Position numbers and translations under genes: made by a program. Shown here one piece after another: positions 20,769 to 59,702 of a stretch of DNA of 64,000 bases; the first letter of the stretch is position 1, and each line of letters begins with the position of its first letter. This DNA is from Minisyncoccota bacterium (lineage in GTDB: Bacteria > Patescibacteriota > Minisyncoccia > Phycocordibacterales > UBA12079), in the NCBI GenBank assembly GCA_023140255.1, contig JAGLLX010000010.1, positions 19,774 to 83,773 on the forward strand, written 5' to 3'. The notes under the pieces are model-generated. The model did no database searches and was not told the DNA's origin. It saw nothing but the letters and a program-made list of their open reading frames with translations.

Positions 20769-21188
20769 ATGTTATTAAATTGGAAAAAAGAATATAGTGT
20801 AAATGTTAAAGAAATAGATGCACAACATAAAAAACTTATTGAAATGATAAACGAGCTTTATGAAATTATAAATAATAAAAACGAAAATCTACAAAAAGAG
20901 TTTACTAGAGTAGTAGGTGAACTAGAAGAGTATAAAAATTATCATTTTTCTACTGAAGAAAAATATTTTCATCAATTTAATTATGAAAATACAGAGGACC
21001 ATATAGCAAAACATATTGCATTTGGGAAAAAAATAGAAGAATTTAAAGAACATTTATCTAACCCTAATGAAAATTATCCGCAAATTTGCTTTGATTTATT
21101 AGATTATTTGGAAGATTGGTTTTTTGCACACCTAATAGGTGATGATAAAAAATATACTAAAACATTTAATGAAAATGGACTTTTTTAA
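20769..21188 (+). CDS. Bacteriohemerythrin
   Basis: WKKEYSVNVKEIDAQHKKL, HFSTEE, HIAKH and W..AHLIGDD di-iron ligands. Confidence 0.93.
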   Translation: MLLNWKKEYSVNVKEIDAQHKKLIEMINELYEIINNKNENLQKEFTRVVGELEEYKNYHFSTEEKYFHQFNYENTEDHIAKHIAFGKKIEEFKEHLSNPNENYPQICFDLLDYLEDWFFAHLIGDDKKYTKTFNENGLF

Positions 21189-21191
21189 AAA

Positions 21192-21358
21192 ATGAATCCT
21201 GTTAGATGTTTAGAGAAAATAATAAATTTATTTAAATATAAAAACGGGACCAAAAACATTATTAGTTTAATTTAAAATTATTTACTTTTTGTAAATTATG
21301 AGGGACTTGTCCCGTTAGAGATAATTTACTAGAGGTAAATTATCTCTAACGGGATGAA
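21192..21358 (+). mobile_element. Start-codon-associated inverted-repeat element, copy A (composite)
   Basis: ATGAA-tcctgttaga...tctctaacggg-ATGAA; contains a perfect 20-bp-arm hairpin at 21310-21354. Confidence 0.7.
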
Positions 21359-23615
21359 AATAAAAACAAAAATAATTTTACCAATAATTTTAGTGGCTGT
21401 AATTGTATTATCAACAGCAACTTTTTATTCATATTTTTTTAATGTCAATACTTTAAATACATCAATTGGGGAACACCTAAATACAACTGTGTCTTCAAGG
21501 TCTCATCATATTGATACTTTTATAGAAGAATTAATAGGAAAAATAAAAATAGCAGCCACGCAAGAAAACTTGACCAACGAAAAACTAGAAAAAATAAAAA
21601 ATTCTAACAGAGAATTTTCAGAAGTGTTCTTGGTAAATCTTGATAAAAAAATAATTAAATCTTCAAGACAAGAGTCTATAGGCTTAGATTGTTCTATTAA
21701 TGATTATCTTGTTAATAAAAAAGATAATGTTTATATGAGAGATGCTTATATTTCTAAAATAAACGAAGAACCATCCATTGCTATTGCTATTTCTCACAAC
21801 AAAGACATATTAATCATTAGGATTAATTTGGAAATTTTAAATGATGTGACTACAAACAAAACAGGATTAGGAAATACTGGTGAAGTATATTTAATTAATA
21901 GTGCTGGGTATACCATTACTCCCCTACAATTTAGTGAAGACACTTTTTTGAAAACAAAAATAGAATCTAAAAATGCTAAGAGTTGTTTAGACACACTAAA
22001 AAACGAAACTGAACATACTGAATATAGAGGAGGGTCTGCAATATATACAAATTATAAAAAAATTGAAGTTATGGGCTCTTACCATCCCTTAAGTATAATG
22101 AACTGGTGTATCTTAGCTGAAATTGATAAATCAGAAGCATTAGCTCCAACAAAAAACTTATTAAAATTCTCTATTATAAGAATTTTGATTATCTTATTTA
22201 TATTTTTTATACTTACTTATTTGATAGCCAGAACTATTAGCAAGCCAATTATTATATTAAGCCAAGGGACAAAAATAATTAAGAACGGTAACTTAGACCA
22301 CAAGGTTGGAACCAATTCAAAAGATGAAATTGGAAGTTTATCAAGAGATTTTGATGAAATGACCGTTGCAATTAAAAAATCACAAATAGAAATTGACAAA
22401 AAAGTTAAAGAGCAGACAAGGGAAATAATAGAAAAACAAAAAGATATTGAAAATCAACAAGAAGCTATCCTAAATGTACTAGAAGATGTAGAAAATGAAA
22501 AAAAGAAAACAGAAATTGAACGAGATAAAATAGACGCTATTCTTCATAGTATTGGTGATGGAGTTTTTGTAGTTGATAAAGATAAAAAAATTACTATTTT
22601 TAATAATATTGCTGAACAAATATCAGGATTTAACAAAGAAGATGTGTTAGGAAAAAACTATCTAGATATTTTGAAATTTATTCATGAAAAAGACAGAACT
22701 CCTAATAATGATTTTATTGAAAAAGCTTTTTCTTTAGGGAAAATTCAAATGATGAAGAACCATACTTTACTTATTAAAAAAGATAAAAGTGAAGTTCCTG
22801 TAGCCGACAGTTCTGCTCCAATAAAAGATAGTGCTGGAAATATAATTGGATGTATCGTTGTTTTCAGAGACGCGACAGCTGAAAGAAAAGCTGAACAAAT
22901 AAAATCAGATTTCGTGTCTATCGCCTCTCACCAACTAAGAACTCCTTTAACGGGAATTCAGTGGGTAACAGAAAGACTGTTAAAACATTCAACTGCTTTG
23001 CCAGAAAAAGAGCAGCAATATATTAAAGATATTAACCTTTCTTCCAAAAGACTATCCACCCTTGTAGACAGTCTATTAAATGTTTCTAGAATTGAAGGAG
23101 GAAAAATAACTATAAAGCCTGAAAAAATAGAGTTGATTGATTTTATTAAAAGCTATCTAACAGAGACTAATCCTTTAACAGAAGCAAAAAATATTAGTTT
23201 AAAATTTAATACACACCCAGAAAATTTAGAAATATTGACTGATCGTTCAGGTATAAGAAATATTGTTCAGTCCTTAGTCTCCAATGCGATTGAATACACA
23301 CCTGAAAATGGAAATATAGAAGTTTCTGTTGAGGACAATGTAGAAAAAGATTCTTTCTTGTTTAAAATAAAAGATACAGGGATAGGAATTCCTTCGAAAA
23401 ACCAAGCCACTATTTTTGATAAATTTACTCGAGGAGAAAATGCCCAGCAAGTTAAAACTGATGGAACAGGATTCGGATTATACATTACAAAACAAACAGT
23501 TGATTTATTAGGCGGAAAAATAAGATTTGAATCTATTGAAAACGAAGGAACAACTTTCTTTGTAACCTTACCTAAAATATCCAAAGCTAAAGAAGGCGGA
23601 AAAAGTTTTGTATAA
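21354..23615 (+). CDS. Sensor histidine kinase (Cache-HAMP-PAS-HisKA-HATPase)
   Basis: ASHQLRTPL H-box; NAIEY, DTGIGI and GTGFGL motifs; PAS SIGDGVFVVD. Confidence 0.95.
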   Translation: MKIKTKIILPIILVAVIVLSTATFYSYFFNVNTLNTSIGEHLNTTVSSRSHHIDTFIEELIGKIKIAATQENLTNEKLEKIKNSNREFSEVFLVNLDKKIIKSSRQESIGLDCSINDYLVNKKDNVYMRDAYISKINEEPSIAIAISHNKDILIIRINLEILNDVTTNKTGLGNTGEVYLINSAGYTITPLQFSEDTFLKTKIESKNAKSCLDTLKNETEHTEYRGGSAIYTNYKKIEVMGSYHPLSIMNWCILAEIDKSEALAPTKNLLKFSIIRILIILFIFFILTYLIARTISKPIIILSQGTKIIKNGNLDHKVGTNSKDEIGSLSRDFDEMTVAIKKSQIEIDKKVKEQTREIIEKQKDIENQQEAILNVLEDVENEKKKTEIERDKIDAILHSIGDGVFVVDKDKKITIFNNIAEQISGFNKEDVLGKNYLDILKFIHEKDRTPNNDFIEKAFSLGKIQMMKNHTLLIKKDKSEVPVADSSAPIKDSAGNIIGCIVVFRDATAERKAEQIKSDFVSIASHQLRTPLTGIQWVTERLLKHSTALPEKEQQYIKDINLSSKRLSTLVDSLLNVSRIEGGKITIKPEKIELIDFIKSYLTETNPLTEAKNISLKFNTHPENLEILTDRSGIRNIVQSLVSNAIEYTPENGNIEVSVEDNVEKDSFLFKIKDTGIGIPSKNQATIFDKFTRGENAQQVKTDGTGFGLYITKQTVDLLGGKIRFESIENEGTTFFVTLPKISKAKEGGKSFV

Positions 23616-28836: not shown

Positions 28837-29664
28837 CTACTGTTGATTTAAAAAACCTTTTGCTTTCTTTAATTGGTCTTTAATCATACTGTCTAAAGGT
28901 TTAAATCCGTTCGCAGGTTTAGGTTTCTCTAAAAGATCACAGCTATCATCCCATTCTTCTTCCCAAGGTTGTAGACACGCTTCTTTAGCTTCACACCAAA
29001 GATAACCTGCTGATCCAATACAACCATGTTCATCTTTGTCTCCTCCAACTCTTTGTTCTTCACGAACTTCTTTTATATCCTCTCTTACATTTGCAACATC
29101 TTCTCTTCTGTCTTTATTTAATTCAGCTAATTCTTCTTTAGCTTCTTCGTCTCCGTCTTTAATTTTTTGAATTAAACCAGCTCTTTCCTCGTTAAATTCT
29201 TGTATTTTTTGCTTTCGTTCTTCTATCTTAGCCTTTTGTTCAGTTAATCTTTCCTGAAGCTTTTCTGCAACTTCTGATTTTTTAGCCTCTGCTTTTTCTA
29301 CAAATGATTCTGCTTTTGCAATCATTCGTTCAGCTTTTGCCTGAGCCTCTTCTGTATCAGCACTCTGGGCAAAAGCTTCAGCTAACTCCATTCTTCTATC
29401 AGCAAAAGCTAAGGCCTTTTCTACTCTTTTTTCTGGATTAAAAGTAAAAGTCATAGAAAAACTTTCTTTTACCCCTATCCACCATAAACCTATATTTGAA
29501 GGAACTTTAACCTCTTCTAATTCTTCTTCTAATATTAATTCTGGTACAGGCATACCTTCATCATAAACTACAGGATCAACTGGCATTTCATCTTCAGCTT
29601 GAACTGTTATAGCCCCTAAAAAAGCCATAGAAAAAATCATTGTGTATAATAATATTTTTTTCAT
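28837..29664 (-). CDS. Secreted coiled-coil protein (DUF5667-like) with a GGDKDEHGCIGSAGYLWC Cys module
   Basis: Signal peptide; FTFNPEKRVEKALAFADRRMELA; small Cys-rich module near the C-terminus. Confidence 0.75.
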   Translation of the reverse strand: MKKILLYTMIFSMAFLGAITVQAEDEMPVDPVVYDEGMPVPELILEEELEEVKVPSNIGLWWIGVKESFSMTFTFNPEKRVEKALAFADRRMELAEAFAQSADTEEAQAKAERMIAKAESFVEKAEAKKSEVAEKLQERLTEQKAKIEERKQKIQEFNEERAGLIQKIKDGDEEAKEELAELNKDRREDVANVREDIKEVREEQRVGGDKDEHGCIGSAGYLWCEAKEACLQPWEEEWDDSCDLLEKPKPANGFKPLDSMIKDQLKKAKGFLNQQ

Positions 29665-29764
29665 CCCGTTAGAGATAATCTGCTTTTGACAGATAATCTT
29701 AAGTTAACTAATAATTTTTTATTCCCGTTTTATTTATTCTTTCTAAATCTCTAACGGGATTCAT
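29660..29764 (-). mobile_element. Start-codon-associated inverted-repeat element, copy B
   Basis: Minus strand ATGAA-tcccgttagaga...tctctaacggg-ATGAA; the second ATG starts the gene at 29664. Confidence 0.75.
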
Positions 29765-57226: not shown

Positions 57227-57817
57227 TTACTTATTTTCTAAAATCTTAAAATCTTTTTTAAGATCATCACGACTAAATGAGTTATATAATGCCACGGCGG
57301 GATGAAGTAAAGGAACAATTTTTATTGCCCCATAAGAAGTTTTAACCTCAAAAGATTTTCCTCTCATTTTTCCAATAGTTTCAATTTCTAAATCTAAATT
57401 AAATTTTTTCATTATATATTCTGCAGAATACCTACCCAAAGTTGCAATAATTTTAGGTTGAATAATTTCTATTTGCCTATCTAAAAAAGGCCCATAAATT
57501 TCAATTTCTTCTTCAGACGGGTCTCGATTAGCAGTTGGTCTGTCTTTAACTATGTTTGTAATATAAATATCTTCCCTTTTTAAATTAATTGAACTTAAAA
57601 GTTCATCTAAAACCCTCCCTGAAGCTCCACAAAAAGGCTGTCCTGTTTGAGCTTCATTTTTTCCAGGAGCTTCTCCCACAAACATAATTTTTGCATTATG
57701 ATCCCCTGCTCCAATGACAGGAAAAACTTTGTTTTTAATTCTTTCTGTATACAAAGGAGATTTTTTAAGATTTAAAATTTCATCCTTTATTTGTTTCATT
57801 TGTTCTGTTTTATTCAT
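57227..57817 (-). CDS. Uracil-DNA glycosylase family 4
   Basis: VGEAPG, GQPFCG, ITNIVKDRP and HPA motifs. Confidence 0.93.
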   Translation of the reverse strand: MNKTEQMKQIKDEILNLKKSPLYTERIKNKVFPVIGAGDHNAKIMFVGEAPGKNEAQTGQPFCGASGRVLDELLSSINLKREDIYITNIVKDRPTANRDPSEEEIEIYGPFLDRQIEIIQPKIIATLGRYSAEYIMKKFNLDLEIETIGKMRGKSFEVKTSYGAIKIVPLLHPAVALYNSFSRDDLKKDFKILENK

Positions 57818-57901
57818 CCCGTTAGAGATAATTTACAAAAAGTAAATAATCTTAATTTAATTGATAATTTTTAACCCCGCCAAATCTCTAACGAGATTCA
57901 T
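57813..57901 (-). mobile_element. Start-codon-associated inverted-repeat element, copy C
   Basis: Minus strand ATGAA-tctcgttagaga...tctctaacggg-ATGAA; the second ATG starts UDG. Confidence 0.75.
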
Positions 57902-57905
57902 AATT

Positions 57906-58604
57906 TTAATTTTCTGGAACTATTTGTGAAATATGTTCTAAAATCATTTTAACTGAAGGAGAACGGTCATTTAGATAAGAACGACATTTATTAATTTCTG
58001 AAAAAATACTTTCTATATCATAATCTGAAAATTTTATTTTTGAATCATTTTTATATACTTCATATAAAACCCTTTCCAAATTATTTAAAAATTGAATTGC
58101 TCCAACTTTATCTGCTTTGTCCTTTGTTGTTTTAGGTAAAAATTCTTTAACTAAATCAAATCTTTGTGAAAGATTTGATTTCAAAAAATTTTCTACTATA
58201 TCTCCATAATTTAAATTATTATTTTCAAATTTAATTATTTGAAGACGAGACTTAAGAGTGGCAAGAAGATTTTCAGAAGATTGAATTATTAAAAATATAT
58301 AAACATTCTCTGTTGGTTCTTCAAACATTTTTAATAATGAATTCTGAGCTTCATTGGTAATAAAATTTGTTTGAATAATTATAATTTGTTTATCCCCTGT
58401 AATAGATTTTTTGGATTGAAAATCTTTTATAATCTTTCCATCGTCAATTCCAAAAGTAACAAAATCCCTCAAGTATAAATCAGGATTAGAGGAAACCTGA
58501 AAATTTAATTCTTTTTCTAAAAAAAATAAAAGATCTTGTAAAATTAAATCCTTTTCTCCTTCCAAAAGATAAGCATGATGTAAATTATTTTTATTTAAAA
58601 ACAT
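57906..58604 (-). CDS. holB: DNA polymerase III delta'-like subunit (short)
   Basis: HHAYLLEG, NPD, EAQNSLLKMFEEP and TLKSR motifs. Confidence 0.8.
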   Translation of the reverse strand: MFLNKNNLHHAYLLEGEKDLILQDLLFFLEKELNFQVSSNPDLYLRDFVTFGIDDGKIIKDFQSKKSITGDKQIIIIQTNFITNEAQNSLLKMFEEPTENVYIFLIIQSSENLLATLKSRLQIIKFENNNLNYGDIVENFLKSNLSQRFDLVKEFLPKTTKDKADKVGAIQFLNNLERVLYEVYKNDSKIKFSDYDIESIFSEINKCRSYLNDRSPSVKMILEHISQIVPEN

Positions 58605-58685
58605 GATAAATTAATCAAAAGTTAGGAAAATTCTCTGGAAATTTTTTAACTTTAACTTTATAGACTTTATGAACTTTTGACTTCA

Positions 58686-59702
58686 TTAGTACTTCTTTAA
58701 AATAACACTCTTTCTATACACATCTAAATGCTTCAAAGCTATTCCGGTTCCTTTTGATACACAATAAAAAGAATCTTTTGCTAAATAAGCTTTTACTCCT
58801 GTTCTTCTATGGACTAATTCTGGTAAATTTCTTAATAACGAAGACCCACCTGTCATAATTATACCTCCTTGGACAATATCAGCTGATAATTCTGGAGGAG
58901 TTTCTTGAAAAACAGTCTTAATTGCTTTAATAATTTCTCTTAATTCTTTACTTAAAGCTTTAGCAACTTCATTTGTTTTTACTTCAATAGTTCTTGGTAA
59001 TCCAGAAATGAAATCCCTTCCTCTTATATCCATTGATAATTCTTCTTCAAGAGGTAAAGCTGAACCAATTTTTATTTTTATTTCTTCTGCTGTCTTATCT
59101 CCTATTGATAAATTATATTTTCTTTTAACAAAATCAATAATAGCATTATTTATTTTATCTCCTGCACACTTAACAGAAGTAGAGGCTACAATTCCCCCTA
59201 AAGAAATAACAGCTACATCAATTGTTCCTCCGCCGATATCAACAATCATATGTCCCCCTGCTTCCTCAATAGCTACCCCAGCTCCAATGGCTGCCAAGAT
59301 AGGTTCTTTAACTACAAAAGCTTTTTTAGCACCAGCTTTTATAGTTGCTTCAACTACCGCCCGCCTTTCTGTTGATGTAATTCCTGCTGGAACAGAAATA
59401 ATCACTTCTGGCTTAAAGAAATTCCATTTACCCAAAGCTTTATTAATATAATAACGAAGCATCACTTCAGTAACTTTATAATCTGCAATTACTCCGTCTT
59501 TCATAGGTCTATAAGTAATAACACTTTCCGGAGTTCTCCCTATCATTTTTTTTGCATTAATTCCAACTGCTAAAATTCTGTTATCAATTTCTGATACAGA
59601 CACAACAGAGGGTTCATTTAAAACAACCCCTTTTTTCGGATCAAATATTAAGGTATTAGCTGTTCCTAAATCTATTCCTAATTTTTTTGTAAAAAATGAC
59701 AT
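58686..59702 (-). CDS. mreB: Rod shape-determining protein MreB
   Basis: GIDLGTANT, PMKDGVIAD, VDIGGGT and MTGGSSLL motifs. Confidence 0.95.
   Translation of the reverse strand: MSFFTKKLGIDLGTANTLIFDPKKGVVLNEPSVVSVSEIDNRILAVGINAKKMIGRTPESVITYRPMKDGVIADYKVTEVMLRYYINKALGKWNFFKPEVIISVPAGITSTERRAVVEATIKAGAKKAFVVKEPILAAIGAGVAIEEAGGHMIVDIGGGTIDVAVISLGGIVASTSVKCAGDKINNAIIDFVKRKYNLSIGDKTAEEIKIKIGSALPLEEELSMDIRGRDFISGLPRTIEVKTNEVAKALSKELREIIKAIKTVFQETPPELSADIVQGGIIMTGGSSLLRNLPELVHRRTGVKAYLAKDSFYCVSKGTGIALKHLDVYRKSVILKKY

Follow-up and report, generated by a model that had tools for sequence, protein, structure and literature searches.

The window analysed here, the whole stretch of 64,000 nucleotides, belongs to a genome assembly of 564 kb with about 30% GC, in which all gene calls are crude open reading frame (ORF) calls. 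Three of its genes begin directly behind a short element bounded by inverted repeats. Host gene A (21354..23615, forward strand) encodes a dCache-HAMP-PAS histidine kinase, assigned with Pfam and with a start confirmed by three relatives, and lies behind a hemerythrin gene (20769..21188, forward strand; Pfam). Host gene B (28837..29664, reverse strand) encodes a protein of 275 amino acids with a weak match to DUF5667, below the Pfam cut-off. Host gene C (57227..57817, reverse strand) encodes a uracil-DNA glycosylase (UDG) and follows a holB-like gene for the delta' subunit of DNA polymerase III (57906..58604, reverse strand), both assigned with Pfam.

A first-pass annotation of this DNA had described three genes with ATGAA at the start and a second ATGAA 84-162 nt upstream, and every coordinate agrees with our analysis. 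At copy A, the order is ATGAA (21192-21196), TCCTGTTAGA...TCTCTAACGGG, ATGAA (21354-21358), with 162 nt from ATG to ATG; on the reverse strand, copy B has ATGAA at 29764-29760 and 29664-29660, spaced by 100 nt, and copy C at 57901-57897 and 57817-57813, spaced by 84 nt. As also described there, the upstream ATG lies 3 nt past the hemerythrin stop (21188) at copy A and 4 nt past the holB stop (57906) at copy C, and all three upstream ORFs (uORFs) stop inside the element. The uORF of copy A has 27 codons (21192..21275, forward strand; MNPVRCLEK...) and stops 78 nt 5' of the host ATG, that of copy B has 18 codons (29708..29764, reverse strand) and stops 43 nt before the host start, and that of copy C has 14 codons (57857..57901, reverse strand) and stops 39 nt before it.

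Copy A is a composite element of 158 bp (21197..21354, forward strand), made of two units, whose final base is the A of the kinase ATG. Its left TGAA tetramer (21193..21196, forward strand), preceded at 21192 by the A of the old start ATG, is repeated at 21355-21358. The unit next to the gene is a hairpin of 45 nt (21310..21354, forward strand) abutting the start codon, with 20-nt arms confirmed to be free of mismatches and the loop TAGAG, and its sequence is the same as that of a unit upstream of proS on contig C10. The internal junction, GGGA-CTTG-TCCC (21302..21313, forward strand), can be read directly in the sequence, and we infer that it joins the decayed right end of an older unit, an imported tetramer CTTG, and the left end of the newer unit. 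Copies B and C are simple elements. Copy B is 96 bp long (29664..29759, reverse strand), contains an internal ACGGGA and a 3' hairpin, and has TGAA tetramers at 29763-29760 and 29663-29660; copy C is 80 bp long (57817..57896, reverse strand), with TGAA tetramers at 57900-57897 and 57816-57813.

The 9-mer of the ends, with at most one mismatch, gave 14 matches against 4.96 expected, and 0 of 100 shuffles gave as many. RNA folding z-scores were -6.8, -4.6 and -3.6 for copies A, B and C, and the terminal hairpin of copy A has a predicted folding energy of -33.6 kcal/mol, with the A and U of the AUG paired in the predicted fold. A promoter scan of copy A returned nothing above chance and no consensus promoter on the coding strand, and an Rfam scan of the window returned six tRNAs, no other family and no intron. 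We agree with the earlier statement that the window holds no mobilising enzyme; a nuclease-bearing copy of the element lies elsewhere, on contig C12.

Terminal repeats and flanking tetramers

The outer inverted repeat is 13 bp long, with 0-3 mismatches in copies A, B and C. As the ATG contributes its A to this repeat, the copies are arranged as A-TGAA-[T CCCGTTAGAGAT ... ATCTCTAACGGG A]-TGAA, and the flanking repeat is TGAA, 4 bp, instead of the 5-bp ATGAA duplication that had been proposed. End statistics were obtained from 133 distinct sites of the nuclease-bearing long form (156 before removal of site repeats). The bases outside the two 9-mers are complementary at 128 of these sites (60 in shuffled data), with T/A at 69, C/G at 52 and G/C at 5. 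Left and right tetramers are identical at 45/133 sites (16.7 shuffled) and differ at the other 88, indicating that duplication is not obligatory; where the right tetramer is not TGAA, they are identical at 16 of 64 sites (1.2 shuffled). The short copies have an exact 4-bp match in 33 of 44 cases (28.4 shuffled). At 7 of the 45 matching sites, the left codon is ATG and the right one GTG, which rules out a strict 5-bp duplication. The complementary terminal bases and the tetramer matches, together with these ATG/GTG sites, therefore indicate a duplication of 4 bp and a start codon whose first base is written by the element.

Left tetramers that do not match are often TTTA, TTCA or CTTG. Import of the left tetramer is seen at two conserved empty sites with copies in G002, namely L148, with ACTTG against ATGTT here, and L154, with ATAAA against ATGGA. 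We infer an intermediate with paired ends and a loop of four bases between them, these bases being either a copy of the target or a remnant of the donor.

Occupied and empty sites

The first-pass annotation had proposed looking for empty sites at orthologous loci, and these were found for all three copies. In the genome G010, three bases separate the hemerythrin stop from the kinase start, which has one ATGAA only, and the kinase starts of G001 and G002 also lack copy A. The start of gene B carries no element in any of five relatives (5/5). None of the UDG starts of 29 relatives has a right end directly upstream, although L088 may hold a decayed one, and the gap between holB and UDG is 5, 27 and 51 nt in three relatives, the 5-nt gap being that of G014. 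The same junction is an insertion hotspot in its own right, with 244-1397 nt of unrelated DNA in seven relatives (L085-L087, L089, L090, L092 and L093).

A reverse test started from 51 genes that carry a copy or a lone end in one of six relatives. In the present genome, 31 of them scored as empty, 8 as filled, and 12 had no usable orthologue; topA, scored as empty among the 31, is actually filled, its end having two mismatches. Exact 9-mer counts range from 4 to 35 across six relatives, G004 has two identical 111-bp copies at unrelated genes, and the 13-mer formed by end and ATG is patchy, being present in 12 of 301 genomes of the phylum. The case in which all orthologues are occupied, raised earlier as the opposite outcome, did not hold, orthologues being mostly without the element. 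The three copies are thus almost certainly insertions of a real mobile element, and the empty sites in relatives back the earlier reading of a non-autonomous element that sits at start codons and leaves the host protein intact.

Of 57 occupied host genes, 10 are common to more than one genome (14 pairs), with mostly different subfamilies at the occupied sites, and the hydrolase start that carries the long copy here holds a 78-bp copy in G002. Overwriting of resident copies was considered and rejected, about 11 shared pairs being expected by chance if 170 ATGAA starts are taken as the pool; the sole argument for it is topA, where a mutated flank is common to two species.

Genome-wide, 27 clusters contain an exact 9-base end, and 25 of them are two-ended. 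The two others are a lone right end on the start of fmt and a lone match inside a gene. The right end lies directly on an ATG in 20 of the 25, and copies keep a fixed orientation towards the gene. Eleven of the 20 start-site copies are composites with an inner left end. Fifteen host proteins were scanned and 12 could be named, including TopA, TyrS, ProS, TrmD, Fmt, RecG and RNase R, and several of those scanned align to their family models from residue 1. The host genes are functionally unrelated.

Preference for start codons

The earlier claim that the element targets translation starts is not supported as worded: 20 of the 25 copies are on an ATG and 5 are not, and the nuclease-bearing sites lie on an ATG or GTG with a long frame in 72 of 133 cases. 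The preference follows the terminal base. T/A-ended copies are on an ATG in 20 of 22 cases here and in 46 of 49 in relatives, C/G-ended copies in 0 of 3 here, and copies ending in G are often away from starts. ATGAA is present at 14 of 19 occupied starts against 157 of 505 ORF starts. Since plain ATGAA is about equally frequent at starts (170) and in intergenic places (168) of the genome, survival alone does not give 20 of 22.

A competing view is that starts are not targeted as such, and that G/C-poor ATGAA sites are chosen at random while insertions in coding sequence are purged. This is compatible with the best explanation except for targeting, and we regard it as a serious contender, though one slightly more apt to be wrong than right. 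In its favour, the 23 nt flanking ATGAA contain on average 3.8 G/C at starts and 6.3 in intergenic places; ATGAA with at most 3 G/C in these 23 nt occurs at 84 start, 33 intergenic and 117 coding sites; a target profile, which is partly circular, ranks 43 starts above 9 intergenic sites; and C/G-ended copies are mostly off starts. Against it, the 20 of 22 T/A-ended copies on an ATG depart from plain ATGAA with P=7e-5 and from G/C-poor ATGAA with P=0.03, the relatives point the same way, and a -10-like hexamer 5-9 nt upstream of the old ATG is present in 21 of 64 copies compared with 53 of 489 genes; these sites are not independent, and this genome alone gives 4 of 19 (P=0.25). Copies A and C are operon-internal. 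G/C-poor context and survival could account for about 70% of start-site use. As G/C-poor ATGAA context and purifying selection account for much of it, starts as such may not be the target; easy melting and survival explain much of the preference, and a further link to initiation may exist.

As a side observation on starts in this genome, Shine-Dalgarno-like words precede just 45 of 489 crude starts, and TA[TC]AAT peaks 6-9 nt before the ATG, suggesting many leaderless mRNAs. A motif search of the assembly found no 16S end bearing the anti-Shine-Dalgarno sequence.

The long form encodes a GIY-YIG nuclease

A search for long copies carrying a transposase or HUH ORF had been suggested; a long copy was found, and its cargo is a GIY-YIG nuclease. 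Copy 23 (C12:3119-3390) is 272 bp long, has the same ends as the short copies, and is filled by an ORF of 93 amino acids, which starts at the left (old) ATG, stops at the TGA of the rebuilt right ATGA, and so overlaps the start of a metallo-hydrolase gene. The protein belongs to the GIY-YIG family (PF01541, E 3e-17), and Y12, Y23, G25, R33, H37 and E69, which we take to be catalytic, are invariant in 40 homologues. Its structure model (pLDDT 89.7) has a fold nearest to UPF0213 and Slx1, the latter an enzyme that cuts branched DNA, and the best sequence match is UPF0213 (BH0048, PDB 1zg2; E 5e-8).

At E<=1e-10, 1251 protein clusters match the nuclease, and record titles of its relatives include Patescibacteria, Omnitrophota, Planctomycetota and Elusimicrobia. 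The genomic relatives number 178, and of the best 80, 74 are bounded by both ends; the stop codon falls on position +1 relative to the right end in 56 of 75. The MNPVR N-terminus and LSLTG C-terminus of the protein are encoded by the element ends in most homologues, and annotators should be warned that such termini may be spurious. Of 65 long copies of the ATG type, 57 have ATGA at their end, and in 29 the frame is open from the left start codon to the end of the nuclease; many other long copies have an internal methionine at nuclease residue 8. More distant stand-alone GIY-YIG genes in relatives, unlike the element nuclease, lack these ends. Four of these distant genes (L367, L369, L372 and L374) lie between apparent duplicated pieces of tRNA genes and possibly form a separate tRNA-targeting family.

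A DNA scan blind to the protein, covering 4 of 64 parts of the metagenome set and the size class of 263-293 bp only, yielded 122 end-bounded stretches, of which 95 encode the nuclease. At two loci, L260 and L337, the 9-base ends are part of long perfect inverted repeats, and the DNA that these enclose, about 270 bp, is not that of the nuclease. A close nuclease is present in 6 of 10 genomes of the phylum with ends away from a nuclease gene and in 7 of 291 others, several of these genomes being kin and not independent. The other 4 of the 10 have no close nuclease. G004 and G005 have many short copies and, in their assemblies, no close nuclease either, with best matches at E 1e-21 and 7e-25.

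Viral sequences contained 11 short stretches, 3 of them on a start codon, and two stretches of long size, neither with the nuclease. Searched against viruses and plasmids, the nuclease gave one distant phage match and zero plasmid matches, and these searches found no transport route. A GIY-YIG homing endonuclease was rejected as an identity for the protein, given 133 distinct sites, a TIGR01453 score far below the cut-off, and no Rfam intron in the window.

The ends could instead define a MITE moved in trans by another enzyme, Y1/HUH or some other transposase, with the GIY-YIG gene as captured cargo or a homing-type passenger. We think this improbable. It would fit the two Y1 transposase genes of the genome, the genomes with copies and no close nuclease, the 27 of 122 end-bounded stretches without the nuclease, and the short copies, which have only the ends in common with the long form and therefore are not simple deletion products of it or derived from the nuclease gene. 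However, neither Y1 gene has any of these ends within 500 bp, so that the Y1 transposases are not supported as their owners, and each has palindromes of its own. Moreover, most of the nuclease-free stretches are visible clusters of short copies, no transposase was seen between the same ends in the 263-293-bp class covered by the scan, and the ends encode the termini of the nuclease in most homologues. As for the Y1/RAYT-like genes themselves (G000 C10:20.2-20.9 kb and C3:0.1-0.8 kb), a palindrome lies upstream and apparently also in frame inside the gene.

Composites and short copies as RNA

Intact tandem junctions, with a right end, a short spacer and a left end, were seen 13 times, and among the decayed junctions of composites, 17 of 22 have the sequence A-CTTG-T. 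The 3' hairpin AGAT...ATCT of 44 simple copies varies in sequence, yet its pairing is preserved, with 388 of 461 positions being Watson-Crick; on the coding strand, G-T occurs in 20 cases versus A-C in 6, and an inner GGG motif is present in 42 of the 44. The short-copy hairpins fit decayed tandems of perfect hairpin units and perhaps reflect selection for a structure in which the start is exposed. At equilibrium, pairing is predicted for the bases just upstream of the AUG, and far less of it with long-range pairs barred. The proS gene lies behind the perfect hairpin that copy A also has, and one guess at how it can be translated there is processing by RNase III, whose gene is present in the genome. 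About 4% of the genome's genes now have a structured leader, which poses a question of translation initiation in a lineage with so few Shine-Dalgarno-like sites. A separate hairpin subfamily of 43-45 bp, with mixed terminal bases and off start codons, was seen in G010 (L201, L208, L210, L213, L214, L216 and L217), and two of its seven loci have direct CTTG/CAAG flanks.

The copies might be a domesticated regulatory 5' leader, a switch of uORF and hairpin kept for a shared function, an explanation to which we give little credence. The preserved pairing, the GGG motif, and the flank at topA are what one would cite for it, whereas the unrelated functions of the host genes, the scarcity of the element at orthologues, and the different subfamilies usually found at occupied orthologous sites speak against it, and the hairpin is also explicable as the relic of a perfect palindrome in copies that are not independent. 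An assembly artefact at a repeat can be set aside almost entirely: contigs from the sequencing runs do end within the copy A hairpin and where copy B has its right end, but others read through the left junction of A and the two junctions of B, single contigs span the whole long copy in two runs, and the family recurs in many independent assemblies.

Contigs of four DNA runs from one study, a form of data that drops rare forms, contained no excision product, circle or empty allele, and no joint skipping copy A, copy B or the long copy was among the contig matches listed. The one joint seen at the long copy was discarded as evidence of excision, as it stems from other short copies having both ends.

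Proposed mechanism of transposition

The interpretation we prefer is that the three copies are gene-less insertions of an element that is likely moved by the GIY-YIG nuclease of its form of about 275 bp. The nuclease would cut and move both long and short forms as single-stranded hairpins into G/C-poor ATGAA sites. It would bind the stem that the two ends form in the coding strand, with a nick four bases outside the stem, and the strand would be joined at A^TGAA in melted DNA, for example in a promoter bubble, where the last base of the element would rebuild the start codon. Repair would then copy the target tetramer or fix a tetramer carried from the donor (CTTG, TTTA or TTCA). New hairpin units may land on the right end of old ones, and decay of the inner ends would give composites like copy A. 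Easy melting and survival would raise the share of start sites, and so, in the case of the long form, would free expression together with translational coupling.

Several points count against this mechanism. To our knowledge, GIY-YIG enzymes are hydrolases and are not known as strand-transfer enzymes. The contigs lack excised forms, G004 and G005 carry short copies without a close nuclease, and an exact duplication is missing at 88 of 133 sites. In addition, folding models predict that the start codon is paired in the equilibrium structure, although copies are present at essential genes.

On balance, we lean towards a new class of insertion sequence of about 275 bp, whose sole enzyme, a GIY-YIG nuclease of 86-93 amino acids, would act as a single-strand transposase. 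Such an element would find start codons, draw the start and stop codons of its own gene from the insertion site, pass ribosomes on to the host gene through the ATGA overlap, and seed minicopies in hairpin form that accumulate at these start codons, also in essential genes. If the nuclease does move the element, it would represent a transposase chemistry undescribed in the papers searched, in fewer than 100 residues. It would also bear on how selfish DNA persists in small, gene-dense genomes, the start codon being a harmless site with free expression.

Comparison with known systems

We found no description of the element family in the literature searched. By description, the nearest known system is the Ssn nuclease with its hairpin, in which SsnA cuts single-stranded DNA beside a hairpin, and whose authors suggest that NTS-ssnA-NTS moved as an element in the past (Chenal et al. 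2025, PMC11893778). Both systems have a single-domain GIY-YIG protein (about 94 amino acids there, 93 here) and flanking repeats that also occur gene-free in many copies, and they differ in that here one inverted pair brackets the gene and overlaps its codons, with a 4-bp flank, empty sites and a position at start codons. The terms 'Patesci', 'candidate phyla' and 'start codon' are absent from the text of PMC11893778 searched. Because ends, duplications and empty sites are all in hand, the idea of a mobile GIY-YIG ancestor put forward by the Ssn authors becomes directly testable if our reading is true. The repeat sequence also differs from NTS/SRM: a degenerate NTS-derived pattern with up to 2 mismatches matched 0 of 220 loci. 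Another small GIY-YIG gene of the genome (G000 C1:87463-87860), 43% identical over 75 amino acids to the element nuclease, is flanked by GTCATTGCGAG hairpin repeats, and presumably this gene and its SRM-like hairpin resemble the Ssn/SRM pair.

Movement of the element, likely single-stranded, hairpin-guided and oriented at a tetranucleotide, and its tandem accretion of palindromes recall IS200/IS605 and REP-RAYT systems. These have a covalent Tyr-HUH enzyme and are not known to have terminal inverted repeats or a duplication, whereas the enzyme here is a GIY-YIG nuclease and duplications are common.

Bacterial MITEs such as Correia, RUP and ERIC are, in the section of the review available, under 200 bp, with terminal inverted repeats, a target duplication and no transposase, and form RNA stem-loops, often 5' of genes (PMC3184786). 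The short copies have terminal inverted repeats, small size, no transposase, multiple copies and empty sites, and taken alone resemble MITEs; no class that we found accommodates the entire family. Compared with the MITEs of that section, it has a parent with a GIY-YIG nuclease, a covarying terminal base that is the first base of the start codon, a fixed orientation, and a duplication that is not obligatory. A parent insertion sequence with a recognised transposase was not found, the long forms of the 263-293-bp class scanned encoding the GIY-YIG protein. The Neisseria REP2 and Borrelia IR repeats lie directly upstream of genes and include the ATG (PMC3184786); they carry a promoter and a ribosome-binding site, unlike the coding strand of copy A with its lack of a consensus promoter, and the passage on them gives no nuclease parent or duplication. 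On leaders in CPR bacteria, the part of PMC12641261 available contains nothing.

Finally, an unrelated intergenic repeat of tandem GACTTTATA-like 9-mers is present in the window at 58640-58690, between mreB and holB, and at about 20 other places in the genome, and it also matches many relatives.
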